Assembly (NCBI GenBank): GCA_050261575.1
Contig: JBLNDL010000042.1
Span: 1 to 64,000, forward strand
Direction: 5' to 3'
Origin: Sphingomonadaceae bacterium
GTDB taxonomy: Bacteria > Chloroflexota > UBA6077
DNA length: 64,000 bases
Of this stretch, positions 186 to 32,204 are shown piece after piece; the first letter of the stretch is position 1; the number at the start of each line of letters is the position of its first letter. The translations under genes were made by a program, and so were the position numbers. The notes beneath the pieces are model-generated. The model made no database searches. It was not told where the DNA came from and was given only the letters and a program-made list of their open reading frames with translations.

Positions 186-262
186 GGCGCATTCGTCTAG
201 CGGCCTAGGACACCTCCCTCTCAAGGAGGAGATCACCGGTTCGAATCCGGTATGCGCTACCA
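186..262 (+). tRNA. tRNA-Glu (anticodon CTC), provirus integration target
   Basis: Cloverleaf; anticodon arm CCTCC-CTCTCAA-GGAGG; T-loop GGTTCGAATCC; encoded CCA. Confidence 0.97.
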
Positions 263-281
263 GACCTTACAACATTCGAAC
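239..281 (+). other. attL (B-O-P')
   Basis: tRNA T-loop GTTCGAA (239-245), core GCTACCA (256-262), phage arm ending TTCGAAC (275-281). Confidence 0.85.
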
Positions 282-329
282 AGATCGCGTTTCCCGGTAG
301 GGAGGCGCTGATCCGCTCGGGACTGATGG

Positions 330-353
330 ACCGGCTCAGTTGAGCCGGTTTTG
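330..353 (+). terminator. Intrinsic terminator on the phage side of attL
   Basis: ACCGGCTCA-GT-TGAGCCGGT followed by TTTG. Confidence 0.7.
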
Positions 354-400
354 TCGTTCAGCGTCGCGCCCTGTCGCGAGGCAGGGTGAGGATCGAAACC

Positions 401-428
401 CATGCAACAATCCCCCTATAATGTTGCA
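401..428. promoter_or_regulatory. dif/res-like inverted repeat overlapping a TATAAT upstream of the tyrosine recombinase
   Basis: TGCAACAATC-ccccta-TAATGTTGCA; CATGCAACA recurs at 497-505. Confidence 0.55.
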
Positions 429-454
429 AAGACCAGCTTCGAAAGGGATGTCTC

Positions 455-1126
455 ATGGCCGAAAATGGCGCGCCCGGGCTGCCCGTCCCGGCATCGCATG
501 CAACAGTAGTCGCGAAACGTGCTGGGCTGCCCGCCCGGCGGGGGCTGGATCGGCTGCCGGTCTACGTGACGGCCGAGGAGGCCCGGGCCATCATCAACGC
601 CACCCGGGGTTTCCGGGACCGGCTGCTCCTGGAGACCATCTGGCAGACGGGCGGTCGCATCAGCGAAGTTTTGCGGCTACGGCCGGCCGACGTGGACCCG
701 GCCGACGGCACGATCCGGCTGGCGAACCTGAAGCAGCGCCGGGGCGCGGAGAAGGTCGTCTACGTCTCCCTGGACCTGGCGGCGCAGCTGCGGGCGCTGG
801 CCCGGGATCTCCGGGTGCCCCTGAACGGCTACCTCTTCCAGGGCCGGAACCCCGGGCGGCCCATGACGCGGTTCCAGGCCTACCGGATCATCTCGGCGGC
901 CGCGCGGGCCGCGGGCGTCCTCAAGGTCCACCCCGAGAGCGGGCGGGTGATGCCGGCGTGGCCCCATACCTTTCGGCACGGCGCGGCGAAGCACCAGCTA
1001 GAGCAGACGCTGAGGCTCGATTTCGTGCAGGATCAGCTTGGCCACGCCAGCCTGGAGACGACGAAGGTCTATCTACGGTTGGCAGACGCGGACCGGCGAA
1101 GGCTCAGGGACCAGATCAGCTACTAG
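455..1126 (+). CDS. Tyrosine recombinase, catalytic domain only (probable resolvase)
   Basis: GGRISE (R), LKQR (K), HTFRH, LGHAS, TKVY (Y); no arm-binding N-terminal domain. Confidence 0.9.
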   Translation: MAENGAPGLPVPASHATVVAKRAGLPARRGLDRLPVYVTAEEARAIINATRGFRDRLLLETIWQTGGRISEVLRLRPADVDPADGTIRLANLKQRRGAEKVVYVSLDLAAQLRALARDLRVPLNGYLFQGRNPGRPMTRFQAYRIISAAARAAGVLKVHPESGRVMPAWPHTFRHGAAKHQLEQTLRLDFVQDQLGHASLETTKVYLRLADADRRRLRDQISY

Positions 1127-1245
1127 CGGGCTCAGGCCTGTGTCGCACCGCCTCTAGGTAGGCTGAGGCGTCGCGCTGGACGTTGATCTTCTGGGCCGTC
1201 AGCGGTCGAGCCCTCTCCACGCAGCGCGCCGGCACCGTGGCCATG

Positions 1246-1602
1246 TCATTGTTCCTTCGCCGGGGTCTTGGTGAGCGCCGGCGGTACCGGCAGTCCGAGC
1301 TGCTGGAGGTTCGCCGTCAGGTCGCCCACCAGGGCCGCCACGACCACCAGCCAGACGGCCGTGGAGTAGGGCTGCCATTCGGGCATCACCTCGGCCACCA
1401 GCCGCACGGCTCCATAGCCGAGGATGTATGGCACCACCTTGCTCCCCAGGAAGGCGGCCAGCCGGGAGAGCTGGAATTGGCCGGCTCGGATCGATGCCGC
1501 GATGCCGAGCAGAACGTCGGCCCCGATCAGGGCCAGGATCAGCCGCACCTGGTCGTTGGCCAGGGTGGCTGCCAGCAGGTCACGCAGTGCTAGATCAGTC
1601 AT
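1246..1602 (-). CDS. Putative holin / small multi-TM lysis protein
   Basis: 118 aa with about three hydrophobic segments, just downstream of the endolysin. Confidence 0.6.
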   Translation of the reverse strand: MTDLALRDLLAATLANDQVRLILALIGADVLLGIAASIRAGQFQLSRLAAFLGSKVVPYILGYGAVRLVAEVMPEWQPYSTAVWLVVVAALVGDLTANLQQLGLPVPPALTKTPAKEQ

Positions 1603-1792
1603 CGTATTGCCTCCAGATCATTAGGTCCCCGAGGGGCATGGGGCCGGCTGTCGATGCCTCGGTCTCCCGGGCGGCGAGCTCGGCCTCGCCGCCGGCGATC
1701 ATCGCGGCGGCGATGACGGCCGGCACCTCCACCAGCTCACCCCTCTTGCCCCTCCAGTGGTTCACGAGGAGCCGCACCGTCAGCCACTCCAT
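1595..1792 (-). CDS. Small hypothetical phage protein
   Basis: 65-aa ORF with upstream GGAAGGGAG, overlapping the next gene. Confidence 0.5.
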   Translation of the reverse strand: MEWLTVRLLVNHWRGKRGELVEVPAVIAAAMIAGGEAELAARETEASTAGPMPLGDLMIWRQYDD

Positions 1793-1907
1793 GGCTCCCT
1801 TCCTAAATCAGGGTCTTCAGCCCCAAATCGGCGGCGAGGGCCGCCTGGTTCACCAGTTCGCGAAGTATGGCCTCCATGGCCGGTCCTGTAGCTCCTCCTC
1901 GTCTGGA

Positions 1908-2726
1908 CTACCGGACGCCCAGCTGGGCAAGTTTGGCCATGATCCTGGATCGCAGCTCGTCCGCCCGCTGGTCCCCCTTCGGAAACACGTCGCTCTTGCC
2001 GTCGAACCAGCCGCCGTAGAGGGCGGTGCCGTCCACCTCGGCGTGGGTAGGGAACGCCAGCGGGACGGTCGGGAACACGGCGCGGACCTGCTGGACCACC
2101 CAGCAGAATGCCCTCACCTGGGCGTCGGTGATCGGGTCATCGGCCGTCCCCTGGGCGAACTCGCAGCCCACGTAGTAGCGGCTGCAGCCCCGCGCGTGCC
2201 AGCACCAATGGTCCCAAGGGAGGTGCTGTGCAACCACATCGTCGCCAACAGTGCACACGGCACCCAGCCCGTCGGTCCGGGTCATCTCGTACTGCGCCGC
2301 TCCGGGGAACTCGTCGGCCACCGGCCGCGAGACCCCAGACCTCGTGCCATGCAACAGGAAGCCCCTAGGCACGGTCAGGTAGGGGAATCGGTTGGAGATG
2401 GCGGCCAGCGGCATCTGTAGCACCCGCGGCGCGTATCCCGAGGCTGGGGGCACGTAATCGGCCTCCCAGGACCAGCGCTCGGTGTTCAGCCGCTCGTGCA
2501 CCTGCCCGTCCGGCCCCGTGACCCAAGTACGGTACCCATCGGTGAAGGCGGTCCAGTTGTCGGCCTTCCGCCACACCAGCAGGCCGTTGGTGGTGGCCTG
2601 CAGGCCGTCTCCGTTGGGGCTGTCGTGGTGCTCGTTCTCCAGGGGCGTCCCGACGATATCGGGGCCCAGTAGCCGGGCCAGCTCCGCGAATCCGAGCCGA
2701 AATACGGGTTGTTCCTGATCGCTCAT
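1908..2726 (-). CDS. Endolysin: N-terminal WRKADNWTAFT domain plus Amidase_2-type N-acetylmuramoyl-L-alanine amidase
   Basis: Start MSDQEQ at 2726 (ATGA overlap); FLLHGT...WHA...GCEF...THAEV...GKSD amidase-like motifs. Confidence 0.8.
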   Translation of the reverse strand: MSDQEQPVFRLGFAELARLLGPDIVGTPLENEHHDSPNGDGLQATTNGLLVWRKADNWTAFTDGYRTWVTGPDGQVHERLNTERWSWEADYVPPASGYAPRVLQMPLAAISNRFPYLTVPRGFLLHGTRSGVSRPVADEFPGAAQYEMTRTDGLGAVCTVGDDVVAQHLPWDHWCWHARGCSRYYVGCEFAQGTADDPITDAQVRAFCWVVQQVRAVFPTVPLAFPTHAEVDGTALYGGWFDGKSDVFPKGDQRADELRSRIMAKLAQLGVR

Positions 2727-3049
2727 TGGTTCATCTCCACTACAGTCTCGGGTATCTGTCGCTCCTGGGCCTTCAGCGCACCCAGGTCCTCGGCGGATCG
2801 GATGGCCATCCTGAGCGCCTTGCTCTCCGACTGCAGGGCTGCCACCACCACCCGCAGCGATTCCACTCGACCACGCAGCGAGTCCATCTCTGCCTGCAAC
2901 TTCTCCAGGCGGTCCCACATGGCGTCGGCTCGGGCGGCCCAGGCCAGCTCGGTCTGCTGCCGTATCTGCCGCATGCGCCACAGGGCTCCGGCCAGGGCAG
3001 CCATGCCGCCGGTGATGGTCGTGATAGCCGCGATCACCTCTGCCGTCAT
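2723..3049 (-). CDS. N-terminal TM plus coiled-coil protein (lysis accessory/holin-like)
   Basis: Hydrophobic N-terminus, heptad-rich C-terminus, coupled to ATPase and endolysin by overlaps. Confidence 0.6.
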   Translation of the reverse strand: MTAEVIAAITTITGGMAALAGALWRMRQIRQQTELAWAARADAMWDRLEKLQAEMDSLRGRVESLRVVVAALQSESKALRMAIRSAEDLGALKAQERQIPETVVEMNQ

Positions 3050-4020
3050 TCCACGTCCTCATCCCCGCATCTAGTGTCGCCCGGCACAGCTCGCACTTTG
3101 CCGGCCTGGTAGGGATCCTCCCGACCCGCCACGCCGTAGGGCATCATGCCCCGGTACCCCAGCTCCGGGGCATGCACGTACACCCAGCCCTGGATCGGTA
3201 GCCCTCGCAGCCCGGAGCGCCGGAGCTCCCGATAGGCCGCGGCCGCAGCCTGCCAGTAGCGGGCGTTGTCCTGGCGGTCCGCCTCCGCCTCGCCGCCGCT
3301 GGGCTCCTTGATCATCACGGCGTCGCACCAGGTCATCTGCACCGGCAGGTCCGCCCCCAGGTGGGCGATCACCACGATCAGCCAGTTCAGATGTCGCGCC
3401 TGCCGGATGGCCCGCTCCACGGCCAGGATGCCCTTCTGCGTGCCCCGGGGATGCAGGCTCAGGGACGCCTCGTCGATCAGAACGACCTTTCGGCGGATCT
3501 CACGGGGCGGGTCCTGCCCCTGGGAGAGTGCGTCGGCGAGCATGCCGACGGCATCGGCGAAGACCTCGATGGAGCGCCACTGGATCCACGGCCGCAGGTC
3601 GTCGCGGTACATGTTCACCGCGATCACGTCGTAGCCGTGGTCCCGGCGCCACGCCTCCGCCAGCCGCACGGCCAGCGTGCTCTTGCCCGATCCCCTTGGA
3701 CCGAGGATCAAGACCACGCCGGACCTGAGCCCCCGCAGCCTGCTCTGGAAGCTCCACCAGGGCCGGGCGTCGGGGTCGGATACTGGTGGGGTGGACTCGC
3801 CCTCGCCGGTGATCACGGCCTTGAGCTCGGTGAGGTCGATCCCCTCGGGCGTCAGCCTGACGCCCAGGTGACGGGCCAGCCGCTCCACGCTCTCCACCGC
3901 GGGGGCGTACTCGGGTGCCAGTAGCCGCACCGCCGCCTTGGCCAGCCGCGCGGCCGCGTCGTATTGGCCCGATCTCGCCGCCTGGATCTCCCTCAGCACG
4001 CTGGGGATATCGCCGATCAA
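3046..4020 (-). CDS. Genome-packaging ATPase, FtsK/HerA (A32-like) superfamily
   Basis: Walker A GPRGSGKS, Walker B VVLIDEA, arginine-finger RQARH then hydrophobic strand; TTG start at 4020 with GGAGGTG RBS. Confidence 0.8.
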   Translation of the reverse strand: MIGDIPSVLREIQAARSGQYDAAARLAKAAVRLLAPEYAPAVESVERLARHLGVRLTPEGIDLTELKAVITGEGESTPPVSDPDARPWWSFQSRLRGLRSGVVLILGPRGSGKSTLAVRLAEAWRRDHGYDVIAVNMYRDDLRPWIQWRSIEVFADAVGMLADALSQGQDPPREIRRKVVLIDEASLSLHPRGTQKGILAVERAIRQARHLNWLIVVIAHLGADLPVQMTWCDAVMIKEPSGGEAEADRQDNARYWQAAAAAYRELRRSGLRGLPIQGWVYVHAPELGYRGMMPYGVAGREDPYQAGKVRAVPGDTRCGDEDVE

Positions 4021-4667
4021 GTGGGCACCTCCGCCGTCATATGGTTCCCTAGCAGCCCCACAGCCAGGGTGAGGCCGCTCAGGAGCAGCACGTCGCGCCA
4101 AGGGCTTGACCTACCCTCCCGACTGTGGTATACAGAGTCGACGGTCCCTGGCGGGCGTCCCGACCGCGATGCGCCAGGCCGACCGACTAGGACAGGAGTC
4201 GGGTTCCTGACACCAGGGCTAGGGCGGGCATCCTTTTTGGGATTGCCCGCCGTTTCTTTCTGGCCGGGCGCTCCCCTTCTGGTCGGATAGGCGGTAACCC
4301 ATTTCTTGAATCTCGTCGACTTCCGGTCCGCGATTGTCTGTATGTGCTGCCTCCCCTTGCGGTTAGGCCGAACGATCTCCAGGGTGCTTAGATACGCTAC
4401 ACGTCCTTTGCGCCCGGGCACGGGCTCCCAGTCATCGGACTCCTGGATGGCGGGCACTATGGCTGGCACGTACTCCCACCGCCGATCTCTGTCATGGTCG
4501 ACGAAGAAATGCTGGTAGACCCAGTTGGAGTCAACCTCGACGACACTGTTGTCGGGCGCGTCAACGTATGCGTAGCCCTGCCTGTTCGCGCCTATCTCCT
4601 CGCGGATTCTCCCGAGTGCTTCCTCTCTTGACCCAGGGTAGTCGTCCCAAAGCCGAACGATCCTCAC
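4017..4667 (-). CDS. Putative BECR/PBECR-fold ribonuclease-like protein
   Basis: Pattern QHFF..DRRWEYVPAIVPAI..AYL..WVTAYP resembles PBECR domains (recognition only); visibly lower GC than flanks. Confidence 0.45.
   Translation of the reverse strand: MRIVRLWDDYPGSREEALGRIREEIGANRQGYAYVDAPDNSVVEVDSNWVYQHFFVDHDRDRRWEYVPAIVPAIQESDDWEPVPGRKGRVAYLSTLEIVRPNRKGRQHIQTIADRKSTRFKKWVTAYPTRRGAPGQKETAGNPKKDARPSPGVRNPTPVLVGRPGASRSGRPPGTVDSVYHSREGRSSPWRDVLLLSGLTLAVGLLGNHMTAEVPT
4106..4260 (+). ncRNA. Putative antisense sRNA unit (promoter, hairpins, terminator) inside the 3' end of the 4017-4667 gene
   Basis: TTGACC(4106)-17-TATACA(4129) with upstream TG; stems CCTGGCG/CGCCAGG and CCGACT/AGTCGG; GGCGGGCA..TGCCCGCC then GTTTCTTTC. 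Confidence 0.55.
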
Positions 4668-4873
4668 CGCCTCGGCTCCTGGTTGCTGTCCGGCACCCGC
4701 TGTACGTACATCCCCGCCATCTGGGCCACGGCCGCACCCTCTCCCACGGGCACCCCGTGCCGTTGCGCGGCCTCCACTATCCGCCGGGCTGCCGCCTGGG
4801 CGGCGGCCGCGTCGGGACGTCCGGACTCAGCTGCCTGGATCTCCCTCAGCACGCTGGGGATATCGCCGATCAC
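4664..4873 (-). CDS. 69-aa chimeric ORF (ATPase N-terminus plus fragment of the 5010-6164 protein)
   Basis: MIGDIPSVLREIQAA shared with ATPase; AAAQAAARRIVEAA..HGVPV..AVAQMAGMYV.RVP shared with 5010-6164. Confidence 0.55.
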   Translation of the reverse strand: MIGDIPSVLREIQAAESGRPDAAAAQAAARRIVEAAQRHGVPVGEGAAVAQMAGMYVQRVPDSNQEPRR

Positions 4874-5009
4874 GTGGGCACCTCCGCCACCATATAGTTC
4901 GCTCCGATCTCAGGCTTCATCTCCCCATCACTTTGTTGGGGACGTACCGGACTGCTATGGCCTTCCCGGTAGAGATCCGGAGCTTCGCGTCCTCCAGCCC
5001 TATGCGGCG

Positions 5010-6164
5010 TCATGCCCCATACAGGCTGTTGTCCCATCTGTACGCGATCTCTCGGCCGCGCTTGTCGGTGGTGAACGCGATCAGCATGGGGCGCTTGGGA
5101 TTATGGCGGCGCCGCCCGGCACCCTCGGCCAGTGCCTGGAGTAGGTCGTCCTCGGTCTCGATGCCGAGGTAGGGATACTCATAGGCTATGAGCTGGGCCA
5201 CCTCGTCGGCGGGCAGTCCACGCTTATTCTTGAGGTACAACGGGACGTCATGCCGATACTCCCAGCCCTCGCGTTTTCCAGCATGGGGAGCTATGCCGTA
5301 CTTGCTGACGCTTTTCACGGCTTGCCGAACCTGGTCCGCCCAGTCGTCCTCTTCCCACCCCTCGCGCCAGTCGTTCGCGGCGGCCACCCGCTTTCTCTGG
5401 TCGGCGAGGAACGCCCGGTGGCTCGCGGAGTCGTAGTAGCTGTCGTAGCCCTCGCTGCCGCGGATTGGGTGAATCACGCCGGCGTCGTCCGTGTAGGCAT
5501 CCAGGTTGCGCCAGCGCTCCGGGACGCGCTCGACGTACATCCCGGCCATTTGGGCCACGGCGGTTTTCTCGGAGACGGGCACGCCATGCTCTTTGGCCGC
5601 CTCCACTATCCGCCGGGCCGCCGCCTGGGCGGCGGCCTTGCTGGGGAAAACGGTCTGGCTGAATCGCCCCAGGGCGGCACGGATGTGGGCCGCGTCGTGG
5701 ACGGGGAGGGCCCGGATCTCCGGCGCGGCGAAAGCCGAATCCGGCAGGGCGGCCCGCTCAGCAGTGCTCAGCCTGGGGTTGCTGGCCATCATGCGACGCC
5801 TCAGCTCGTTCCGCTTGGTGGCCACCTGTTCCCTCTGCTTCATGAGCTTATCCATCTTGGCCTCCCACCGGGCCACGGCTCGCTCGAAGTCGTCGTAGCT
5901 TCGGTAGTCGCGCAGGTTCGGCACCTGCTCGCGAAGCCGCTCGTACTCCTCCGCCAGACGCCGGCCGGTGGTCCTCAACCGCTCCCAAGCCTGGTTCAGG
6001 TCGGTCGGGTTCACGACCCTCCAGCCTTGCCGCTGGAGGGAGCTGACCGCCTTGGAGCCCGGCGCGACCCGATATCGCTTGCCCCGCGGACTCTCGATGA
6101 CCACGTAACGCGCCGGTCTGCGCGCTGGCTTAGGCTTACCGAAGAGCCGGTCCCAGAATCCCAT
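5010..6164 (-). CDS. Basic multi-module protein containing a DUF6582-like domain; probable internal virion protein
   Basis: LSTAERAALPDSAFA..LPVHDAAHIRAALGRF resembles DUF6582; modules separated by NP motifs; frame stays open 30 codons past the TGA, to 4917. Confidence 0.65.
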   Translation of the reverse strand: MGFWDRLFGKPKPARRPARYVVIESPRGKRYRVAPGSKAVSSLQRQGWRVVNPTDLNQAWERLRTTGRRLAEEYERLREQVPNLRDYRSYDDFERAVARWEAKMDKLMKQREQVATKRNELRRRMMASNPRLSTAERAALPDSAFAAPEIRALPVHDAAHIRAALGRFSQTVFPSKAAAQAAARRIVEAAKEHGVPVSEKTAVAQMAGMYVERVPERWRNLDAYTDDAGVIHPIRGSEGYDSYYDSASHRAFLADQRKRVAAANDWREGWEEDDWADQVRQAVKSVSKYGIAPHAGKREGWEYRHDVPLYLKNKRGLPADEVAQLIAYEYPYLGIETEDDLLQALAEGAGRRRHNPKRPMLIAFTTDKRGREIAYRWDNSLYGA

Positions 6165-6166
6165 GG

Positions 6167-6352
6167 CTACCTCCTAGCAGGGTTGTTGACGCGCGTGACC
6201 CGATCGGCGGGTAGCACCCGTGCCACCACCCCCGCGTTGCGGATCCCCGTGGCCACAGCCTTGGCCACGGGCCGGTGGGGCGTGCGGTACAGCTCCACCA
6301 ACTCGCCCGTCTGCGTGGTCGCCACCACCACGTAGCCGGCCTGTCTGGCCAT
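6167..6352 (-). CDS. Small basic protein ending in NNPARR
   Basis: ATG at 6352, tightly packed in operon. Confidence 0.55.
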   Translation of the reverse strand: MARQAGYVVVATTQTGELVELYRTPHRPVAKAVATGIRNAGVVARVLPADRVTRVNNPARR

Positions 6353-6353
6353 G

Positions 6354-6689
6354 CTAGCCCACCACCTCGAACTCGCCGCCGCAGGCACCACACCGGCCTA
6401 TCTGGCCGGCTGCCTGCGCCGGGATCTCCAGCAGCTCCCCGCAGTGCGGGCAGGACGCCCGCTCGACCTCATCCTCGCCCGCGGCCGAGAAATCGTGGCT
6501 GCCCTCCACCATGTCGATGTGCAGGTTCAGCTCCGGGAACGGGTTGTGCCCCCGCCGGGCTCTCTGCCATGCGCGACCAGCCTCCTTCATCAGCTCCTGG
6601 AGCTGCTCCTTGCTCATGCCGGGGCGGCTCCTGGCCCGCAGGAAGCTCGTGGCGAAGAGCTGATATGTGCTCATCTTGCGTCTGGCCAT
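6354..6689 (-). CDS. Basic protein with C-terminal zinc ribbon
   Basis: MARRKM start with GGAGGTG RBS; RRGHNP; CPHC...CGAC. Confidence 0.65.
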   Translation of the reverse strand: MARRKMSTYQLFATSFLRARSRPGMSKEQLQELMKEAGRAWQRARRGHNPFPELNLHIDMVEGSHDFSAAGEDEVERASCPHCGELLEIPAQAAGQIGRCGACGGEFEVVG

Positions 6690-6700
6690 GTCATCACCTC

Positions 6701-7207
6701 CTAGCCGACCAGGCCGCGGTCGGGATCTAGCTTCATCTTGCTGCCGGCGGGCACCGTGTACACCTTGCCATCGGCGTCGGCCACCAGCAGTCGCCGTCCC
6801 CGCAGTCGGGGCAGCCCCGGGCCCCGGTCGCCGGCCTCGTGCTGCCACTCCACACCGCCGCGACGGCTGTGGCGGTCCGGCCGATAGACCGTCTCCACCT
6901 CCTCGCCGATCACCACCACCTCCCGGGGCGGGCGCTGGTCCTCGTCCAGGATTGCCGTCTCAGCGGGCGTGCCGTGGAACCGCTCGGAGATCGCCTCCAG
7001 CCTGGGGTCGTGGACCGGGGCATGGACGTGGGCCGGGTTCCGCCGCCTCACGTACTCGCCGATGTCCCTGTAGGCGGGCGGCGGGTCGCCCACGACGGCG
7101 GCGGGCAGCTCCCGCAGCTGGTGCGGGCTGAACGCCAGCATCTGGGCGGCGGCGAGGAGAGCCCGCCGCGCCCGATCCCCCAGCTCCCGATGCTTCGCCC
7201 TGGCCAT
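6701..7207 (-). CDS. Hypothetical virion-associated protein (RRRNP, then FHG...QHE domain)
   Basis: 168-aa ORF in the structural operon. Confidence 0.65.
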   Translation of the reverse strand: MARAKHRELGDRARRALLAAAQMLAFSPHQLRELPAAVVGDPPPAYRDIGEYVRRRNPAHVHAPVHDPRLEAISERFHGTPAETAILDEDQRPPREVVVIGEEVETVYRPDRHSRRGGVEWQHEAGDRGPGLPRLRGRRLLVADADGKVYTVPAGSKMKLDPDRGLVG

Positions 7208-7209
7208 GG

Positions 7210-7302
7210 TTACCGCTTCCTGCGGTGGGTCTTGCGCCGGTGGGTCTTGTGTCCGGCCTTCACGAACCGGCCGGTCTTGGGATCGCGCTTGGGTAGTGCC
7301 AT
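7210..7302 (-). CDS. 30-aa protamine-like microprotein MALPKRDPKTGRFVKAGHKTHRRKTHRRKR
   Basis: Below ORF-track cutoff; AAAGGAG RBS; fills the gap between two operon genes. Confidence 0.75.
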   Translation of the reverse strand: MALPKRDPKTGRFVKAGHKTHRRKTHRRKR

Positions 7303-7323
7303 GGGGTTCGCTCCTTTCTGGCG

Positions 7324-7818
7324 CTAAACGGCCTTGAAGAACGCGCGTATGTCGAAGGTTTCATTCGTGGTCAGGTCCTCCACGTAGCCATTCGGCTGGA
7401 GGGCCATATGATGTCCATTGTCGTTGACGAACACGTCGCCGGGCTTGTACACGTTGCTGCCGGGTCCGTTCTGTACGATCGTCTGGAGCTGGGTGTCCCA
7501 CCAGACCGGCTGCCCTCCCAGGTCCACCATGCTGGTGGGTATCCGGGTCGGGTTTCCGGGTGCAGCGCCGACGCCGGCGGAGCCACTCCCCCTACCGCTC
7601 GCCACCCCTCCCGACCCGGCGGGTATGGAGGCGGCCGTGTAGCTCTTCCCCGGGTGCAGCGCCTTCCACACCTCCATGGCCTGCCGCTGGGCATTGGTGC
7701 CGAGAGAGCCCTGGAGGGCCATGCGGTACAGGATCACCGTGGCGCCGCCTACCACCAGGTAGTAGGCGAGGGCATCGATGCTGCTGGATCCTCGGGGGTT
7801 GCGCTGGCGGCTGGCCAT
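7324..7818 (-). CDS. Virion membrane protein (N-terminal TM)
   Basis: MASRQRNP, then hydrophobic helix and Gly/Ser linker. Confidence 0.65.
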   Translation of the reverse strand: MASRQRNPRGSSSIDALAYYLVVGGATVILYRMALQGSLGTNAQRQAMEVWKALHPGKSYTAASIPAGSGGVASGRGSGSAGVGAAPGNPTRIPTSMVDLGGQPVWWDTQLQTIVQNGPGSNVYKPGDVFVNDNGHHMALQPNGYVEDLTTNETFDIRAFFKAV

Positions 7819-24811: not shown

Positions 24812-24816
24812 AGGGA

Positions 24817-24886: not shown

Positions 24887-24897
24887 GTGAGCCTTCG

Positions 24898-25593
24898 ATG
24901 AGCACTCGGCGCACTTGCGTCTACATCGACGGGTTCAACCTGTATTACGGCTGCCTGAAGAAGAGCAAGTACAAGTGGCTCGACTTGTCCAAGCTCTGCA
25001 CTTTGCTTTTGCCCGACCACACCATAGTGGGCATCAAGTACTTCACAGCCCGCGTTCGTCCCCGGCCCCAGGATCCCACTCAGGGTGTTCGGCAAGCCAC
25101 CTACCTGCGTGCGTTGCAGACTCTTCCCAACCTCGAGATCTATGAGGGGCATTTCCTCTCTCACCCGGCCTGGAGGCTGTTGGCTCCGCCACCTGAAGGG
25201 CACACAAGCCTTGCGCGAACGGGCGGTAATGGGGAGCCTGAGTACCTTGATGTGCCTGACGGAGCCCAGCGGGCTTACGTATGGGAGACAGAGGAGAAAG
25301 GCTCCGACGTCAACCTGGCAGCCCACTTGCTTGTGGACGGCTTCAGTGGAAGGTATGAGTTCGCTGTTGTGATCTCTAACGATTCCGATCTGGCGTCCCC
25401 CATCGAGATGGTCCGCCGTGAACTGGACCTTCCAGTCGGGATATTCAATCCCCATCGGAACAGCCCCAGCGCGCAGTTGGGCAAGGTGGCAGTCTTCCAG
25501 CGACCAATTTGGCCCAGGTTGCTCAAAGCTAGTCAGTTTCCTCCTGTGCTCTCAGACAAAATCGGTCTCATCTCCAAACCTGCCGAGTGGTGA
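24898..25593 (+). CDS. NYN/LabA-DUF88 PIN-fold ribonuclease
   Basis: VYIDGFNLYYG, EEKGSDVNLA, ISNDSDL. Confidence 0.9.
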   Translation: MSTRRTCVYIDGFNLYYGCLKKSKYKWLDLSKLCTLLLPDHTIVGIKYFTARVRPRPQDPTQGVRQATYLRALQTLPNLEIYEGHFLSHPAWRLLAPPPEGHTSLARTGGNGEPEYLDVPDGAQRAYVWETEEKGSDVNLAAHLLVDGFSGRYEFAVVISNDSDLASPIEMVRRELDLPVGIFNPHRNSPSAQLGKVAVFQRPIWPRLLKASQFPPVLSDKIGLISKPAEW

Positions 25594-25809
25594 GAATCTG
25601 CGACCTTCGGTGGCGACAGCTCGCCAGGGAAGCGGCAGCCCGAGGGCAAGCGACGCCGGATCCCGGAGGAGCCGGAGGGGCGACGCGCGCCCAGGCAAAA
25701 AGAGCCACAGGAACGGCTCACCCTGCTTTCCTGCAGCGGCAGCTGCGGAGCCGGCCGCAGCCTGTAGTAGGGTGAGGGTGAACAAGACACCAAGGAAGGA
25801 GGACGAGCA

Positions 25810-27126
25810 ATGGCACCATACACAATTCTGGAAATCCCTCTGGCGAACTTGCTTGTGAACTGCGAGAACCCCCGGTATGACCCTCAGCCCAGCCAGAGAG
25901 AAGCCATCGCGGCCATTGCCACCGATGAGCCCTCGAAGCTGGTTGCTCTCGCGGAGGATATCCTGGAGAAGGGCTTAAACCCTTCCGAGCTGATCATGGT
26001 GGCGCCCGCAGAGCAGCCCGGAATGTACAACGTGCAGGAGGGCAATCGCCGGATAGTCGCCCTGAAGCTGGCAGCGTGCCCACAGTTACTGGATTCGATT
26101 GATCTTCCCGGTAAGGTGAGGACTCGGTTCAAAGCGATCGTTAAGAATGCCAACGGAGAGGTGCCGTCGACTATTGCCTGCGCCCTCGTTCCCGAGGAGG
26201 ACGCGAAACATTGGATCCGGCTGAAACACACCGGTCAGAATGACGGTGTGGGTGTCGTTCCGTGGAATGGCGCTGCTAGGCACCGGTTTCGAGGTAATTC
26301 CGTAGCTCTCCAGGCTATAGAACTGGTGGACAAGCACAAGCTCCTGGATGAGGAGACGCGCGCCAAGCTCCCGAAGATACCCATCACCAACATCGAGCGT
26401 GTTCTCAGCACGCCGGAGGCTAGGCAGCTCATCGGCGTGGAGTGGAAAGACAAGCGCCTGTCATTGGTGGGGGCAGAGGATGAAGTGTTGGGCCGGCTGG
26501 CGATAATCATTACCCAAGTGGCCAACATGACGATTCGGGTCTCCGATCTGGACACCAAGCAGCAGCGCGTGGAGTATGCCGAGAGGATCGCCGCCATGCC
26601 ACTTCCGCCGGAAGGAGGCCAAGCCGTCGCGGGGGGAAAAGTCGCCTCGGCGACACCGGCAGCTGGGGAGCGTCGGCGAATAGGCGTTGAACGCAAGACC
26701 TTGATACCCCGCAGCTTGAAGCTGAGGATCCCCTCTCAAAGGATCAACCGCATCTACGACGAGCTGCAGAAGCTGAAAGTGGATGACTTCGTCAATTGCT
26801 GCGCCGTGATGTTTCGCGTGTTCATCGAATTGAGTGCCGACCACTATGGCCAAGCCCACGGTGTTTCGCTAATATCTACACAGGGCAAAGAGATGAGCCT
26901 GAAGGAAAAGATCCGAGCCGTGGCCGACGATCTTGAAAAGAGGGGCGTCTGCAACAAGGCACAGCTGAAGGGGATCCGCGCTCTTGCAGCTAACAAGGAT
27001 CATGTCCTTTCAGTCGATGCGCTCAATGCCTACGTCCACAACATGTACTACAATCCTACGGCCAGAGATCTAAAGGCGGACTGGGACACCATTCAGCCAT
27101 TCGTGGAAGGTGTCTGGGCCGACTGA
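25810..27126 (+). CDS. ParB/Srx-like N-terminal plus HEPN-like C-terminal protein (candidate defence effector)
   Basis: NPR...VQEGNRRIVALK; C-terminal AVMFRVFIELS...LNAYVHN. Confidence 0.65.
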   Translation: MAPYTILEIPLANLLVNCENPRYDPQPSQREAIAAIATDEPSKLVALAEDILEKGLNPSELIMVAPAEQPGMYNVQEGNRRIVALKLAACPQLLDSIDLPGKVRTRFKAIVKNANGEVPSTIACALVPEEDAKHWIRLKHTGQNDGVGVVPWNGAARHRFRGNSVALQAIELVDKHKLLDEETRAKLPKIPITNIERVLSTPEARQLIGVEWKDKRLSLVGAEDEVLGRLAIIITQVANMTIRVSDLDTKQQRVEYAERIAAMPLPPEGGQAVAGGKVASATPAAGERRRIGVERKTLIPRSLKLRIPSQRINRIYDELQKLKVDDFVNCCAVMFRVFIELSADHYGQAHGVSLISTQGKEMSLKEKIRAVADDLEKRGVCNKAQLKGIRALAANKDHVLSVDALNAYVHNMYYNPTARDLKADWDTIQPFVEGVWAD

Positions 27127-27132
27127 GGCGGG

Positions 27133-28038
27133 GTGAGTATGGCTAGCCAACAGAACCACAGCTTCCTGAGCCCCCTTCGCTATCCGGGCGGCAAGGGTCC
27201 CCTGGCCAATTTCGTGAAGCTGGTTGTTGCGCACAACGGCCTGAGCGACGGCGACTATGTGGAGGTGTTCGCTGGGGGAGCGAGCGTGGCCTGGGCACTC
27301 CTGTTCGAGGAGTATGTGCGGCATGTTCATCTGAACGACCTGGACGTCAGCGTGATAGCGTTCTGGCGCTCCGTCTTGGAGGACACCGAGGGTCTGTGCC
27401 GTCTGATCCGGGACACGCCGGTCACGATGGAGCAATGGCACCTGCAGCGAGCTGTACAAACCAATCCAGAGGGACACTCCAGGCTCGAGGTCGGGTTTAG
27501 CACCTTCTTCCTCAATCGGACTAACCGATCTGGCATCCTCAAAGGCGGGGTTATCGGGGGCAAAAACCAGGCCGGCCCGTGGAAAATGGACGCGCGCTAC
27601 AACAAGGTGGACCTGATCCAGCGGATCCAGCGCATTGCGCGGTACGCCGGCCGGATCCATATCTATAATCAGGATGCTGCTCACTTCATCAAGACTGTTC
27701 TCCCCCGGCTACCTGACGCGACCCTTGTCTACCTAGATCCGCCCTATTTCACCAAAGGGCAGGGGCTCTACGAGAACCATTATTCGGCGCGTGATCACAG
27801 GGCCATCGCAGACCTCGTCCTCAATGAGGTGAGGCAGCCGTGGATCGTGTCCTACGACGCAGCTGCTGAGATTCTAAGCCTCTATGAAGGCCATCCGCGC
27901 ATTCTCTACAACATCGTTTACAGTGCGCAGGCCCCATATCAGGGGTGCGAGGTGCTTTTCTGCCGGAGAGATCTCGCCGTGCCTCAGGTGGCCACGCCTC
28001 TGGGGTTGAAGCGGCCAGCCTACTCGCGACCAGCCTGA
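27133..28038 (+). CDS. DNA adenine methyltransferase (Dam/D12 class)
   Basis: SPLRYPGGKG, EVFAGGA, LNRTNRSG, YLDPPY. Confidence 0.93.
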   Translation: MSMASQQNHSFLSPLRYPGGKGPLANFVKLVVAHNGLSDGDYVEVFAGGASVAWALLFEEYVRHVHLNDLDVSVIAFWRSVLEDTEGLCRLIRDTPVTMEQWHLQRAVQTNPEGHSRLEVGFSTFFLNRTNRSGILKGGVIGGKNQAGPWKMDARYNKVDLIQRIQRIARYAGRIHIYNQDAAHFIKTVLPRLPDATLVYLDPPYFTKGQGLYENHYSARDHRAIADLVLNEVRQPWIVSYDAAAEILSLYEGHPRILYNIVYSAQAPYQGCEVLFCRRDLAVPQVATPLGLKRPAYSRPA

Positions 28039-28081
28039 ACCGCCGGCCTTCCTGTTCTGCTCGATAGTAAGAGATGGGGTG

Positions 28082-28110
28082 TTGCTATAGAACTAGCGTT
28101 CTAGTATCAT
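28082..28110 (+). promoter_or_regulatory. Promoter with a LexA-type box (GAAC-N4-GTTC) in the spacer
   Basis: TTGCTA(28082)-17-TATCAT(28105); GAACtagcGTTC at 28090-28101. Confidence 0.75.
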
Positions 28111-28137
28111 CAACCAAATTCCGTTGGGGGTGTCTGG

Positions 28138-28824
28138 ATGGTGGTTCATGAGCCTCCTCTTCGCTCTTTCATCCAGGAAGGCCAGTTGGTTCAGGAGGTA
28201 GTGGAGTACGCCATCACCGAGCACAGGGAGAGTTGCCCCTGGAGGGCGATCCTGGAAGCGTCGCCCGCCCTAGCCTGCATGGTGGCCTGCTGCCGGCCGT
28301 CGCCGCGGCCGGAGGGCGAGCTGTTGCGGCAGCCCCAGCTGCTGGTAGTGGCGGACCTGGCGGCGGTCCATGAGCTGGCGGCTCGGGCGCTGCGCCAGGG
28401 TGGGGCGGCGAAGCCACCGGTGGCCACCAACCTGGTAGCCCTCCTGGACCCGGAGCGGCTGGTGTACATTCGGGACGCCACCATGGAGGCTCGCGCGGAG
28501 CATCTGCTCGCCGGGGATAGCTGGGTGATCCGGGTGAACAGGGTCCTGGGGCGCAACGCCCGACGCTTCGCCATCATGAGCCAGGGCTTTCACCTGATGC
28601 GGGCGGCCCGGGGCCTGGAGCTGCAAAGCCACGGGACGGCAGCCCTGAACTGGCTGGCCGATCGCTTCGCCGCTTACGTGCTGATGCCGGAAGAGTGGGT
28701 GAGGGAGCTCCACGCCAAGACGGAGAACCTGGCCAGCCTGGCGGGGATCTTCCAGGTAAGCCAGACGGCCATGAGGATCCGGCTGCGGGAGCTGGGGCTC
28801 GCCGACTTTCCCGCCGAGCGGTAG
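28138..28824 (+). CDS. ImmA/IrrE (Peptidase_M78)-like protein with degenerate zinc site
   Basis: RRFAIMSQGFH replaces RRFTIAHELGH; ADRFAAYVLMP; LAGIFQVS..AMRIRL C-terminal HTH. Confidence 0.8.
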   Translation: MVVHEPPLRSFIQEGQLVQEVVEYAITEHRESCPWRAILEASPALACMVACCRPSPRPEGELLRQPQLLVVADLAAVHELAARALRQGGAAKPPVATNLVALLDPERLVYIRDATMEARAEHLLAGDSWVIRVNRVLGRNARRFAIMSQGFHLMRAARGLELQSHGTAALNWLADRFAAYVLMPEEWVRELHAKTENLASLAGIFQVSQTAMRIRLRELGLADFPAER

Positions 28825-28970
28825 CCCGGCCTCCGACGCGACCGACGTCGATCAAATCCAGTGATCCAAAGTGTTCCCATCGGGCTATAATGTCGCCATC
28901 CTAGATGGTTGTTGATGAAGGCTCGACTAGTGCGTGCTAGCGCACAGCTGTGCGAGGGAGGTTCGATCCG

Positions 28971-30464
28971 ATGAAGCGGCTACTCGTCGGTCTAACCGTG
29001 GTGGTTGGTGTCGTCTTCCTGGGACTCGGCTCAGCCATGGCCGAGTCAAAGCCCGAATTCAGGCTGGGCTTCAAGGCCCTTTCCGATCAGATTCCCGATG
29101 TCGTCGGCGATCCCCTTGAGAACGAGCACTGGGGTACGAATGGGGATTCGCTGCAGCGCACCAGCAAGGGCCTGATGGTGTGGCGGAAGGCCGACAACTG
29201 GACCGCCTTCACCAACGGTGCGGAGACCTGGATCAACGGGCCAGAAGGACTGCAGAGCCGGCCGAACGATCAGCGGTTTCCATGGGAGAATGACCCGGTG
29301 TCTCCACAGGGCACTGAATACGCGCCGGTCATCATCAACGGCATTCAGGCACGCGATGGTAGCAAGCCCTTGGTCTGGATAAACGGATTGCCTTGCCAGG
29401 ACCCGAGCCAGGGCGGAACAAACTGCTACTCGCTGGCTGGCGGGACCATGGTGAGGGCTGGTGGCCGCAACTATCGATGGTTAGGCGGCACCAGTTTTGT
29501 AGATGCAGGCCCATACCCTACTGCTTCTCAGCCCTCGGGCCAACAACCGCCAGTCCCACAGGCGGTTCCGCCTGTTTCGCCCGCCCCCGCTGCAGCAACG
29601 CTCCAGGAAGCTGCACAGTTGATGCGCAGCTACACCATCGCCATCACAACCAACAATGGTAAGGGTAGCGGAGTGTCTCTGGGCAGCGGCCGAATCCTAA
29701 CCGCAGCCCACGTTGTCACTGGCGCGACCAACATCACCATCTGGTCAGTCGATGGGCAGCCTATCCGCGCGCAACTCGCTGGGATCGATCTTGCGCGCGA
29801 TCTGGCACTTCTCCTGGCACCTAGTCTTCGTGCGCCAGCGGCACCCATCGGCGATTCCTCCGGTTTGAAGTTGGGAGACACGATCTTGGTCCTTGGCTAT
29901 CCAAGACCAGATGCTATCGGGATGGGCGAGCCGACGCTCACACAGGGGATACTCTCCTCTCGCAAGAACAGAGCAGGAGTAGAGGTTCTGCAAACCGATG
30001 CCGCCATCAATCCTGGCAACTCTGGCGGACCAGTTGCTGACGGAGCGGGGCGCCTGGTGGGAATCGCCGACTTCATAATCACGGAGGCCGAAGGGCTAAA
30101 CTTCGCCGTGGCGGGCACCGCGATCAAAGACTTCCTGTCAGGCCCACAGGGACTGGCCAACTCGTCTGTGCCCTATCAGATGCAGTCCTTCGGTGTTCCG
30201 GCGGACAAATGGGCAGCCTACACGTGGAGGCTGGCAACGACCGGAGCAGCCTTGGAGGGATACTTCACGGTATCCGGTGACAAAGATGTGGGGTTCCGGA
30301 TCACCGGGCCATCTGACAGCATACTGCTCGACCCTGGGCGTGTTGAGGGGCCCTATGCCTTCGGGATCAGATCGACATCGCCTGGTCCCCATACGCTGTA
30401 CTTCGACAACACCTATTCCATCTTTACCACGAAGAACATCACCCTGTTCTACAGGGTTCACTAG
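28971..30464 (+). CDS. Secreted trypsin-like serine protease with WRKADNWTAFT domain and C-terminal GOLD-like domain
   Basis: Signal peptide; TAAHV / DLALL / GNSGG triad; YFDNTYSIFTTK. Confidence 0.85.
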   Translation: MKRLLVGLTVVVGVVFLGLGSAMAESKPEFRLGFKALSDQIPDVVGDPLENEHWGTNGDSLQRTSKGLMVWRKADNWTAFTNGAETWINGPEGLQSRPNDQRFPWENDPVSPQGTEYAPVIINGIQARDGSKPLVWINGLPCQDPSQGGTNCYSLAGGTMVRAGGRNYRWLGGTSFVDAGPYPTASQPSGQQPPVPQAVPPVSPAPAAATLQEAAQLMRSYTIAITTNNGKGSGVSLGSGRILTAAHVVTGATNITIWSVDGQPIRAQLAGIDLARDLALLLAPSLRAPAAPIGDSSGLKLGDTILVLGYPRPDAIGMGEPTLTQGILSSRKNRAGVEVLQTDAAINPGNSGGPVADGAGRLVGIADFIITEAEGLNFAVAGTAIKDFLSGPQGLANSSVPYQMQSFGVPADKWAAYTWRLATTGAALEGYFTVSGDKDVGFRITGPSDSILLDPGRVEGPYAFGIRSTSPGPHTLYFDNTYSIFTTKNITLFYRVH

Positions 30465-30482
30465 CGCGGTTGCCGGTAGCAG

Positions 30483-32204
30483 GTGGAGCGGATGCCCAAA
30501 CGCCCCAGATGCAAGTGCCAGGATCCCACCGCCGTGGCGATCCTGGCCAGGATCAGCGACAAGGAAAAGCAGGGACAGGCCAGCCTGGAGGAGCAGGTCC
30601 GGCAGACGCGGGAGCTGCTGGTGGAGCCCCAGGGCTGGCATGTGGTGGCCGAGTACCTAGTGCGGCACCGGGGCTCGGACCTCTCGCGGGATCCGACCTA
30701 TATGACCATGGTCCGGGACGCGCGGGCCGGCAAGTTCGCTCGCCTCTGCCTGCATAAGTTCGACCGCTTCGCCCGTCGGGCCTACGACCGGGAGGTGTTC
30801 GAGCATATCCTGACCCGAGAGTGCGGCATTGCCCTGCACGCGGCCCTGGAGCCGTACGATCTCAGCACGCGAGCCGGGAAGCTGACCAAGAAGACCTCCG
30901 CCTTCATCAGCGATATCTTCCTGGACAACCTGGCGGAGGAGACGGTGAAGGGAATGGTGGCCAAGGTCACCCGCGGCGGCTGGGTTGCCCGAGCGCCCTT
31001 TGGGTACGTGAACAAGCGCGAGGAGATCGGCCACAACAAGTTCCGTCGGTGGGTGGAGGTCGATCCGATCCATGGTCCCGTGGCGCGCCTGGTTTTCGAG
31101 ATGTTCGCCAGCGGCCAGTACACCCTGGACGGACTGGCCGATTGGCTGAACCGTCACGGCTACACATGGCACAATGGCCGACAGTGGCGCCGGGATCGCG
31201 TCCACAGGTTGCTCTTGAACCCCTTCTATGCCGGCCTCATCCGCTGGAACGGGATCGAGGCCCAGGGTGCCCATGAGCCGCTGGTGGATCCCCAGACGCG
31301 GCAGGCATGTCTGTCCATACTGCGGGAGCACGATCAGGATCGCGAGAGACGGTCCCGGCACACCTATGTGCTAAATCGACTGCTGTACTGGGCAGAGCTG
31401 GGCTGCCGCTCGCACGCCGAACACCAGGCCCACGCCGGCGCCAGCTATTACCGATCAATCAAGCCGGGTCCGGATGGATCGCGAATATGCATCCGCTGTG
31501 AGGTTGTCGATGACCAGGTGGGTGTGATCCTGGACGAGCTCGAGATACCACCGTCGCTGCACCCGGCCCTGCGACGCGCCTATAGGCGGGAGATATCCGA
31601 GGCAGCGGCCCCCTACCGGTCTCGAGCCGCGGAGCTCCGGCGTCGTCTTGTAGAGCTGGAGGAGGAGAGCCGGGGCTACGTGAGACTGGCGGCTCAGGGG
31701 CGCATCACCGAGGAGGAGTTCGACGCCGAGCGGCGGCGCGTACAGGGGGCGGTTGCGGCTGTGCGGGAAGATCTCGCCGCCATCGAATCGGGCGGACAGA
31801 GCCAGGTATCGGACCTGGACCTGGCGCTGGCATTCTCGGCCAGGCTGGGTTGCCTGTGGGAGCGCGCCGATGCGGCCCACCGGCGGGCGATAGCTCACCT
31901 GGTGTTCAAGCGGGTATCCATCGACAGCAGCGGAACCGTGGTCGACTATCAGTTGGCGCCTCCCTTCGGATACCTCGCTGCGCTGAAAAGGGCCTGCTAC
32001 CCCGCCCAAGGGGGGCCGTCCCGTTCGAAACACGTCGCAGGTGGGCTACCAATCGGGACACCGGTGGGCCGGCTCGCTCGAGCCGGCCCGTTGTTGTCTG
32101 GGGGGCGGCGCGCTAGGGCAGGCTCGACAGCAACTCCTGCAGGGCTTGCGCGGAGGCTGCCAGCACCACGAGGATCAGGATGGCGTAGGCAACGATCAGG
32201 GTAA
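30483..32204 (+). CDS. Large serine integrase (C-terminus crosses attR)
   Basis: ARISD catalytic Ser, KFDRFAR, APFGY, LLLNPFYAG, HEPLVD; coiled coil. Confidence 0.93.
   Translation: MERMPKRPRCKCQDPTAVAILARISDKEKQGQASLEEQVRQTRELLVEPQGWHVVAEYLVRHRGSDLSRDPTYMTMVRDARAGKFARLCLHKFDRFARRAYDREVFEHILTRECGIALHAALEPYDLSTRAGKLTKKTSAFISDIFLDNLAEETVKGMVAKVTRGGWVARAPFGYVNKREEIGHNKFRRWVEVDPIHGPVARLVFEMFASGQYTLDGLADWLNRHGYTWHNGRQWRRDRVHRLLLNPFYAGLIRWNGIEAQGAHEPLVDPQTRQACLSILREHDQDRERRSRHTYVLNRLLYWAELGCRSHAEHQAHAGASYYRSIKPGPDGSRICIRCEVVDDQVGVILDELEIPPSLHPALRRAYRREISEAAAPYRSRAAELRRRLVELEEESRGYVRLAAQGRITEEEFDAERRRVQGAVAAVREDLAAIESGGQSQVSDLDLALAFSARLGCLWERADAAHRRAIAHLVFKRVSIDSSGTVVDYQLAPPFGYLAALKRACYPAQGGPSRSKHVAGGLPIGTPVGRLARAGPLLSGGRRARAGSTATPAGLARRLPAPRGSGWRRQRSG
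32023..32065 (+). other. attR (P-O-B')
   Basis: GTTCGAA (32023-32029) and core GCTACCA (32045-32051). Confidence 0.85.
32066..32098 (+). terminator. Hairpin, probably the original tRNA-Glu terminator displaced by integration
   Basis: GGGCCGGCTCG-CT-CGAGCCGGCCC then GTTGTTGTC. Confidence 0.6.

Follow-up and report, generated by a model that had tools for sequence, protein, structure and literature searches.

A prophage at a Chloroflexota tRNA-Glu gene, probably inserted by its own large serine integrase at attachment sites that carry T-loop motifs

Large serine integrases, which are widely used for genome engineering, make a two-base staggered cut at a central dinucleotide shared by the attachment sites attP and attB and need no host factors. 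The integrases of A118/LI, SPbeta, Bxb1 and PhiC31 consist of a catalytic domain, a recombinase domain and a zinc-ribbon-like domain with a long coiled-coil insertion. In the A118/LI type, attP exceeds attB by ~10 bp, the outer motif of attP is shifted outward by 5 bp relative to that of attB, and the central dinucleotide occupies the pseudo-dyad. In the accessible part of the study of Rutherford et al. 2013 (PMC3783163), the zinc-domain (ZD) motif spans positions 16-24 of attP and 11-19 of attB, the latter site being ~10 bp the shorter. Here we analyze a window of 64,000 nt (contig JBLNDL010000042.1 of assembly GCA_050261575.1, a Chloroflexota genome of the UBA6077 lineage) in which a prophage-like insert sits at the 3' end of a tRNA-Glu(CTC) gene. 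The insert encodes two recombinases, a large serine integrase (P0001) and a short tyrosine recombinase (P0002), and we propose that the serine integrase carried out the insertion, probably by recognizing copies of the tRNA T-loop sequence as the outer elements of its sites.

The window integrase shares the domain plan of the four enzymes named above and appears to share, with the A118/LI type, the length difference, the 5-bp offset in the left half of attB, and the central position of the dinucleotide. It differs from the A118/LI type in its target (a tRNA gene, where theirs is a protein-coding gene), in having the T-loop as outer motif of attB, in the replacement of the four zinc ligands, in the location of attP within the integrase open reading frame (ORF), and in a right arm of attB (B') without the motif. 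The nearest counterpart described so far is DsiB, the ssrA-specific serine recombinase of Dehalococcoides genomic islands, a protein of ~540 aa whose ORF overlaps attP/attL according to the part of McMurdie et al. 2011 (PMC3146451) available to us. Going by the same part of that paper, DsiB, like the window integrase, inserts at the 3' end of a tRNA-like gene, with an ORF that lies over the att site and a stop codon set by the integration state. DsiB elements differ, on that account, in being non-phage islands with a 20-bp repeat and a small, co-transcribed second serine recombinase, DsiA, whereas the window holds a prophage with a 7-bp repeat and has neither a DsiA-like partner nor the six-gene module; a trypsin-like protease gene precedes the integrase, and the only further resolvase-like match that the genome contains lies on contig C19. 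The accessible sections of PMC3146451 place the insertion in the T-loop and do not read the sites by the ZD offset model. A clade of proteins ~30% identical to P0001, described below, includes a D. mccartyi recombinase with a tail running antisense through a T-arm, which we do not equate with DsiB.

Islander-type tyrosine integrases also target the 3' part of tRNA genes, and their elements likewise restore the gene. In their case a fragment of the tRNA marks the far end of the element (PMC4383910, in its accessible part), whereas the junctions in the window share 7 bp and their architecture fits a serine integrase. The available text of PMC4383910 states that serine-family integrases were not known to target tRNA genes. 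The term tRNA does not occur in the main text, as accessible, of a large recombinase survey (PMC10083194), and a limited full-text literature search over partly accessible sources returned the Dehalococcoides ssrA islands (PMC3146451) as the only precedent for a tRNA-targeting serine integrase. The mechanism that we propose is that of ordinary large serine integrases. What appears to be new is a phage integrase of the DsiB kind in a true tRNA gene, a T-loop-based site readable by its offset, and a family-wide geometry centred on tRNA positions 71/72.

The borders of the insert are well defined. The window starts at a contig end, just before the tRNA gene, and the insert lies between two copies of the core GCTACCA (Table 1). 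Comparison of both junctions showed that their identity extends over these 7 bp only, with flanking matches at chance level, and no longer direct repeat of the tRNA end occurs within 1-33000. We compared positions 31400-32700 of the window with Logan contigs from four soil-metagenome runs (X1-X4) of one study. All four runs contain contigs that match the window from 32045 onward and are preceded there by letters identical to 226-255, that is, by the tRNA body; two of these empty-site contigs are 5423 and 3859 nt long, and run X1 also has a contig across the prophage junction (31738-32074). An empty attB is present in the same populations, and its junction lies inside GCTACCA. Since these contigs join the tRNA body directly to 32045, they confirm the insertion borders independently. 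They bear out the initial annotation, made from the sequence alone, which had tied its reading to a junction within this core; all the sequence features that it described are present, the right-hand core lying one base further right than a naive count suggests. Contig depths in the four runs are not convertible to cell fractions, and the empty sites may derive from excision or from cells that were never lysogenized, two origins that the contigs do not distinguish. The contigs of the four runs include no attP junction and no loose end from the phage side, and since contigs drop rare forms this is silent on excision. No second copy of either prophage end is found in the assembly to which the window belongs.

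Gene order in relatives agrees with an insertion. Among the 40 relatives searched, the conserved stretch that is tatA in the window lies at most ~300 nt from tRNA-Glu in four published genomes that belong to the same taxonomic order (G008, G021, G027 and G030), a count made without the unpublished G037, and an mntP/tatA homologue lies within 3 kb of tRNA-Glu in G001 and G003, two genomes of the same family. The corresponding distance in the window is 33 kb. The host genes to the right of the prophage are mntP, for a manganese efflux pump (32664-33218), and tatA (~33340-33537). In relative G017, the 3' flank of tRNA-Glu consists of a hairpin and then a GTT-rich run and resembles the window from 32052 onward.

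The geometry of the sites is the second line of evidence. Joining the phage sides of the two junctions reconstructs an attP of ~48 bp, composed of GTTCGAA, 16 nt, CT, 16 nt and TTCGAAC: 16 nt separate the end of GTTCGAA (32029) from the CT at 32046-32047, and 16 nt separate the CT at 257-258 from the TTCGAAC that begins at 275. In the attB of ~38 bp, the T-loop GTTCGAA ends at 245, 11 nt before the CT at 257, i.e., 5 nt closer than in attP. The motif occupies positions 18-24 in attP and 13-19 in the left half of attB, inside the 16-24 and 11-19 zones of the LI integrase model, and the 5-bp offset rule that the initial annotation had invoked matches the ZD zones given in the accessible part of PMC3783163. 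The CT sits at the dyad, inside the 7-bp identity. When the six possible core dinucleotides were compared, the CT centre gave a perfect inverted run of 7 and complementarity at 12 of the first 24 positions, and the next best centre a run of 4. Runs of at least 7 are rare: with all six centres allowed, 222 of 20000 shuffles of the flanks had one, as did 1248 of 60000 87-nt pieces drawn at random from the window. The chance of meeting the same 7-mer exactly 5 nt closer in attB is ~1e-4 (2 x 4^-7; one fixed offset, two arms). By a count from the sequence, T12 is present in all four half-sites of the window. The pseudo-palindromic layout usual for large serine integrases, with an attP of ~50 bp, an attB of ~40 bp and a 5-bp offset, is seen for the P, P' and B half-sites and not for B'. 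The hexamer ACCGGT, which occurs in both attB arms, was considered as an alternative motif; it is symmetric about no core dinucleotide and we took it as chance.

P0001 is a large serine integrase of full length. Pfam finds PF00239 (Resolvase; residues 19-167, E 1.3e-12) and PF07508 (Recombinase) in it, and no match to PF13408. Residues R23, S25, R95 and R98 are invariant in 30 sequences, Ser25 being the catalytic serine. A profile of 30 family members aligns to the C-terminal domain of the A118/LI integrase (4kis) over positions 203-473 (E 3.6e-18), an alignment that spans the recombinase domain, the zinc-ribbon region and the coiled coil. The AlphaFold2 (AF2) model has a mean predicted local distance difference test score (pLDDT) of 83.6 and is confident to about residue 509, with beta-hairpins at 301-338 and long helices at 357-452; from residue 510 the chain is predicted to be disordered (pLDDT <50). 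Foldseek ranks the full-length integrases of SPbeta, Bxb1 and PhiC31 highest. The profile alignment pairs no zinc cysteine of the A118 integrase, which has four, with a cysteine in the P0001 family. A degenerate zinc ribbon had already been suspected from the letters alone, and the description holds: there is no cysteine at the four A118 ligand positions, yet the fold is confidently predicted. The model suggests that the zinc-ribbon fold is kept, while metal binding is doubtful.

The attachment site attP is part of the integrase gene itself. As integrated, the ORF has no stop codon before attR and continues for 153 nt into host DNA. In the integrase frame, window positions 257-341 read LPDLTTFEQIAFPGREALIRSGLMDRLS, and the stop codon TGA comes next, at 341-343. 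P0004 (64% identical) and P0005 (67%), homologues that stem from other metagenomes, end exactly 28 residues from their own LP, and their 28-residue tails are identical to the window tail at 15 and 17 positions, respectively. An in-frame tail that matches those of P0004 and P0005 in length and residues places attP within the integrase gene, in keeping with the joined attP of the initial annotation, across which the ORF continues in frame into the right side of attL. By arithmetic the phage-form protein would have 549 residues; P0004 has 547. Another homologue, P0011 (85% identical in the alignment), continues with unrelated sequence straight after LP, indicating a second junction at the same point. 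Since the disorder of the AF2 model begins at residue 510, the att-coding part lies outside the folded protein. Homologues have R, S or G immediately ahead of S-K/N, and Q or R immediately behind F-E; the tail residues vary only in ways compatible with both 7-mers, which points to selection on the att motifs at the DNA level, as far as can be judged from codon tables applied to protein sequences only.

Integration exchanges the 26-residue phage tail after LP for a 48-residue tail encoded by the host, and it separates the gene from a hairpin terminator at ~343-372. This hairpin, followed by a T-run, was read by eye; it comes after the integrase stop codon of the excised form. The free and the integrated phage may therefore differ in how strongly the integrase is expressed or in how stable it is.

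Distant relatives show the same geometry at other tRNAs. Proteins ~30% identical to P0001 form a clade in the Dehalococcoidia, and many of their C-terminal tails read like an antisense T-arm. We fetched 28 loci and analyzed the 23 that carry most of the integrase gene. The end of the gene abuts or overlaps a tRNA in 11 of the 23 (Glu 2, Ala 2, Gln 2, Val 2, Lys, Leu, and one untyped). The motif [GA]TTCGG lies exactly 17 nt before the dinucleotide that equals tRNA 71/72 in 22 of the 23 loci; the remaining one, L088, ends early. In 18 loci the arm is antisense to the tRNA end, and in four (L072, L078, L085 and L087) it is in the sense orientation, as in the window; L085 and L087 were flagged by our script as fitting both orientations and were taken as sense by reading. 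The spacing is fixed, with no insertion or deletion, across at least six tRNA types and both orientations, and both arms in the window have it too. An equal distance in both orientations locates the pseudo-dyad at 71|72, the CT that the initial annotation had taken as the centre. Conservation over 24 distinct arms is highest at positions 19-24 (the motif), at A17 and T12, and at 3-5. The P arm of L072 resembles a tRNA-Gln 3' end that has five more bases between the T-loop and the acceptor stem and, judged by its sequence, is the 5-bp offset in its plainest form.

Taken together, these results make the serine integrase very probably the integrating enzyme, as the initial annotation had argued over the tRNA-adjacent tyrosine recombinase; the borders, the position of attP within the gene, the site geometry and the clade all favor this assignment, and all are evidence at the level of sequence. 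That the GTTCGAA motifs act as outer recognition elements of this enzyme we consider fairly likely. The reading as a whole, in which a serine integrase with GTTCGAA outer motifs integrated the phage at the CT of tRNA-Glu, is supported, not proven, and we judge it probable. The borders, the empty site, the fold and catalytic residues of the integrase, the geometry, and its conservation in relatives are established. The earlier description of the T-loop as "the recognition motif" needs qualification: the T-loop does lie at the offset position, but a near-universal T-loop cannot alone explain specificity for tRNA-Glu.

Several observations weigh against this reading. Positions 13-19 of the B' arm, read in the same sense, are ACCGGTG and match the motif at one of seven positions. 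The lack of a GTTCGAA-like motif in B' is the main internal weakness, leaving the site only three-quarters as the model predicts, and none of the four sense-type loci of the Dehalococcoidia clade has a B'-side motif either. Because the zinc ligands are missing, transferring the zinc-domain model from the LI integrase is an assumption. A 7-bp identity is also the size of a tyrosine-type overlap, a tyrosine recombinase whose catalytic residues look intact lies on the other side of attP, and homologues of that protein lie near contig ends in three of five viral contigs, as integrases often do. An attP junction was not seen among the contigs. The loci of the clade are related to one another, and counts across them are not independent trials. 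Lastly, some of these loci have a distal arm with 14-55 nt of tRNA identity and a T-loop at attB-type spacing, which the simple model leaves unexplained. The tRNA pieces of this type, such as those in L090, L081 and L071 (Table 1), may be junctions or remnants of tandem elements, as in the ssrA islands (PMC3146451, accessible part), or attP arms that mimic a tRNA.

The motif-less B' arm and the lost zinc ligands could also mean that the serine integrase did integrate the phage and that GTTCGAA and TTCGAAC, instead of being contacted by the zinc-ribbon-like domain, are a leftover of a tRNA-derived attP, or reflect a constraint on coding the tail, with the 5-bp match being fortuitous. The tRNA-Gln-like P arm of L072 makes such an ancestry plausible, and both clades conserve the coding frame in which the motif stands. 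A coding constraint is hard to reconcile with a tail whose pLDDT is below 50 from residue 510 and whose residues vary where the DNA motif can stay constant, and tRNA ancestry does not explain why the right-hand copy is inverted. The spacing, moreover, is the same in 22 of the 23 distant loci, which include at least six tRNA targets and either orientation, and it shows no insertions or deletions there. We regard this explanation as unlikely.

The tyrosine recombinase P0002 deserves attention as the possible integrating enzyme, in which case the 7 bp of GCTACCA would form its overlap region and the serine recombinase would have a different role. Its gene lies 190 nt from attL and would be next to attP in the circular form, the protein matches PHROG integrase families, a 7-bp identity suits a tyrosine-type overlap, and tRNA genes are the classical targets of tyrosine integrases (PMC4383910, in its accessible part). 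Over 21 sequences, residues R68, K100, R174, H197 and Y206 show little or no variation, and the catalytic signature is apparently complete. The 223 aa are, in contrast, the longest ORF possible for P0002 and the catalytic domain starts at residue 38, which leaves no room for a core-binding or arm-binding domain. The features expected of a tyrosine-type att site are not found: the junctions share 7 bp only, the phage carries no longer fragment of the tRNA 3' end, and no inverted core sites stand beside the 7 bp, the best perfect run off the CT being at most 4. Moreover, attP is embedded in the ORF of the serine integrase and inherited with it, and the relatives of the serine integrase abut tRNAs, with no P0002 homologue inside 3 kb in any of 25 loci of the clade. 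P0002 homologues lie near an end in three of five viral contigs, and elsewhere such a protein may itself act as an integrase; the architecture of the site in the window does not fit P0002, and we consider its having integrated this phage very unlikely.

The P0002 family numbers more than 150 database proteins of ~212-225 aa with a catalytic domain only, many of them from Chloroflexota metagenomes and some from viral contigs. A palindrome at 403-428, TGCAACA ... TGTTGCA, encloses a TATAAT-like box and lies 27 nt before the tyrosine recombinase gene begins. We considered it as a recombination site and rejected it: it occurs only once in the window and probably serves as an operator or promoter.

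No tyrosine recombinase is known to us to serve a serine integrase, although no search was aimed at such a case. That both enzymes are needed, with the tyrosine protein as a directionality or accessory factor or with the two acting in different steps (integration versus excision or multimer resolution), is suggested by the position of both genes beside attP in the circular form, by the similar number of close homologues of each in the protein database (about nine) and by two-protein serine systems such as DsiA/DsiB and CcrA/CcrB (PMC3146451, accessible part), and is most improbable given that the distant clade lacks the tyrosine recombinase and that the five viral contigs with homologues of the latter have no serine integrase, and no tRNA, within 4 kb.

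Returning to the serine integrase as the integrating enzyme, we envisage the following course. A temperate phage of ~31.8 kb would enter the 3' end of tRNA-Glu(CTC) by means of its own large serine integrase (30483-32204). The integrase would bind two sites: attP, located in its own gene at the 3' end that encodes the disordered tail, and an attB centred on C71-T72 of the tRNA, whose left half-site would present the T-loop GTTCGAA 5 bp nearer the centre than attP does. The zinc-ribbon-like domain would contact GTTCGAA, and its position would let the enzyme tell attB from attP, as in other large serine integrases. Strand exchange, with cleavage at the CT, would then join the host tRNA body to ACCA and a terminator supplied by the phage. 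Because the phage provides ACCA (and the CT as well, if the cut falls there), the tRNA would stay intact, and the integrase ORF would gain a different C-terminal tail, encoded by the host. The tyrosine recombinase would be dispensable for these steps.

The generalization to a whole family is tentative, and we would call it possible rather than probable. A clade of zinc-less Chloroflexota integrases may target the 3' ends of tRNA and transfer-messenger RNA (tmRNA) genes in a modular way: the near-universal T-loop GTTCR would in every case be the docking site of the zinc-ribbon-like domain, at positions 13-19 of attB and as a copy 5 bp further out in attP; exchange would invariably take place at 71/72; acceptor-stem bases read by the recombinase domain would set the choice of tRNA; and attP would be housed in the disordered tail, so that integrase and site evolve as one unit and the C-terminus changes. 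If this is true, the clade would constitute a naturally retargetable integrase family and contradict the older statement on serine integrases and tRNA genes. The fixed 71/72 geometry leads to a testable hypothesis for re-aiming such an enzyme, in which the T-loop anchor is kept and the inner half-site is changed; the initial annotation had suggested the enzyme as a candidate engineering tool. A constant outer motif and a variable inner motif, combined with repair of the target, would be a useful natural experiment in specificity. Where the pseudo-dyad is clean, att sites of such enzymes are readable from the sequence of a single lysogen.

Table 1. Positions of the features discussed; coordinates refer to the window unless another locus is named.
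Feature	Coordinates	Strand	Details and basis
tRNA-Glu(CTC), encoded CCA	186..262	+	ARAGORN; Rfam RF00005; sequence
T-loop GTTCGAA	239..245	+	tRNA G53-A59; proposed zinc-domain motif of attB left half-site, positions 13-19
Core GCTACCA, attL copy	256..262	+	tRNA 70-76; CT at 257-258 is the putative crossover dinucleotide (C71 T72)
Frame completing the integrase ORF in the excised form	257..343	+	LP + 26 residues, TGA 341-343; translation; tail comparison with P0004, P0005
P' arm of attP as in attL	263..281	+	TTCGAAC at 275-281 (positions 18-24)
Prophage-like insert, two recombinases	263..32051	.	31,789 bp; Pfam, PHROGs; empty site; tRNA-Glu/mntP/tatA synteny in relatives
Tyrosine recombinase P0002	455..1126	+	223 aa, catalytic domain only; PF00589 residues 38-211, E 5.4e-24; PHROG integrase families
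Amidase/endolysin-like	1908-3062	-	Pfam/PHROGs
Pectate-lyase-type tailspike	9905-12331		Pfam/PHROGs
D5-type primase/helicase	18035-20623		Pfam/PHROGs
Large serine integrase ORF, P0001	30483..32204	+	573 aa as integrated; crosses attR into host DNA
GTTCGAA, P arm of attP	32023..32029	+	positions 18-24; codons R-S-K of integrase tail, predicted disordered
Core GCTACCA, attR copy	32045..32051	+	CTACCA = integrase codons L-P; sequence; empty-site contigs
B' arm and host flank	32052..32095	+	hairpin then T-rich run; resembles tRNA-Glu 3' flank of relative G017
Distal-arm tRNA pieces, L074 and L089			14 nt
Distal-arm tRNA piece, L090	4442-4613		24-nt partial tRNA-Val beside complete gene
Distal-arm tRNA piece, L081	4445-4530		truncated tRNA-Glu, ~55 nt
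Distal-arm tRNA piece, L071	4466-4520		diverged T-arm

Searches for further copies of the system gave little. A single-protein scan found no DNA of a close integrase homologue in viral contigs, where the exact 29-nt P arm and the motif pattern likewise had 0 matches. Alignment scans of genome and metagenome contigs returned no close-family relatives, and a genome search at the level of the order recovered the window's own genome alone (1 of 39). A looser motif pattern in metagenome contigs matched 25 loci, none with a close integrase homologue, and we discarded these as relatives of the att sites: six resemble tRNA T-arms in convergent orientation, the partner protein in one of them (L048) is 22% identical, and the matches are due to chance or unrelated. 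The six (L046, L048, L058, L061, L064 and L069) share a locus with two facing T-arm-like sequences 34 nt apart, in the manner of convergent tRNA genes, and in L048 the 22%-identical serine recombinase lies ~500 nt from them. Known phages were uninformative as a reference for the att sites, the best tblastn matches being 22-25% identical over 53-62% of the query. The sequence that follows tRNA-Glu in G001 and G003 was examined as a P'-like arm and rejected: the likeness is faint, and the DNA downstream encodes a membrane protein and toxin-antitoxin-like ORFs, with no phage genes.

Apart from the recombinases and the genes in Table 1, the insert encodes HTH (helix-turn-helix) repressor-like proteins, a D12 adenine methyltransferase, an IrrE/M78 peptidase and the trypsin-like protease. 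Its G+C content is 0.585-0.62 in the block at 24000-31000, compared with 0.65-0.71 elsewhere. This block includes a NYN-domain protein, a 438-aa protein of PHROG 9592, the D12 methyltransferase, the IrrE/M78 peptidase, the trypsin-like protease and the integrase, and may be an accessory or moron-like module.

An inverted repeat (2536-2663 / 29094-29218), made up of 68 nt that are 90% complementary and 36 nt that are 83% complementary, links the amidase/endolysin gene on the minus strand with the trypsin-like protease gene on the plus strand, so that both proteins share a short, near-identical module that may serve in wall binding or targeting. Direct repeats occur as two pairs (3950-4050/4803-4903 and 4689-4808/5518-5637), each of 100-120 nt, 81-84% identical and ~830-850 nt apart, around the STAND/AAA-like ATPase and DUF6582 genes. 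The host part of the window contains a T-box leader at 38130-38392 on the minus strand (Rfam RF00230, 103.6 bits) and a tRNA-Lys(TTT) gene at 43733-43806 on the plus strand.

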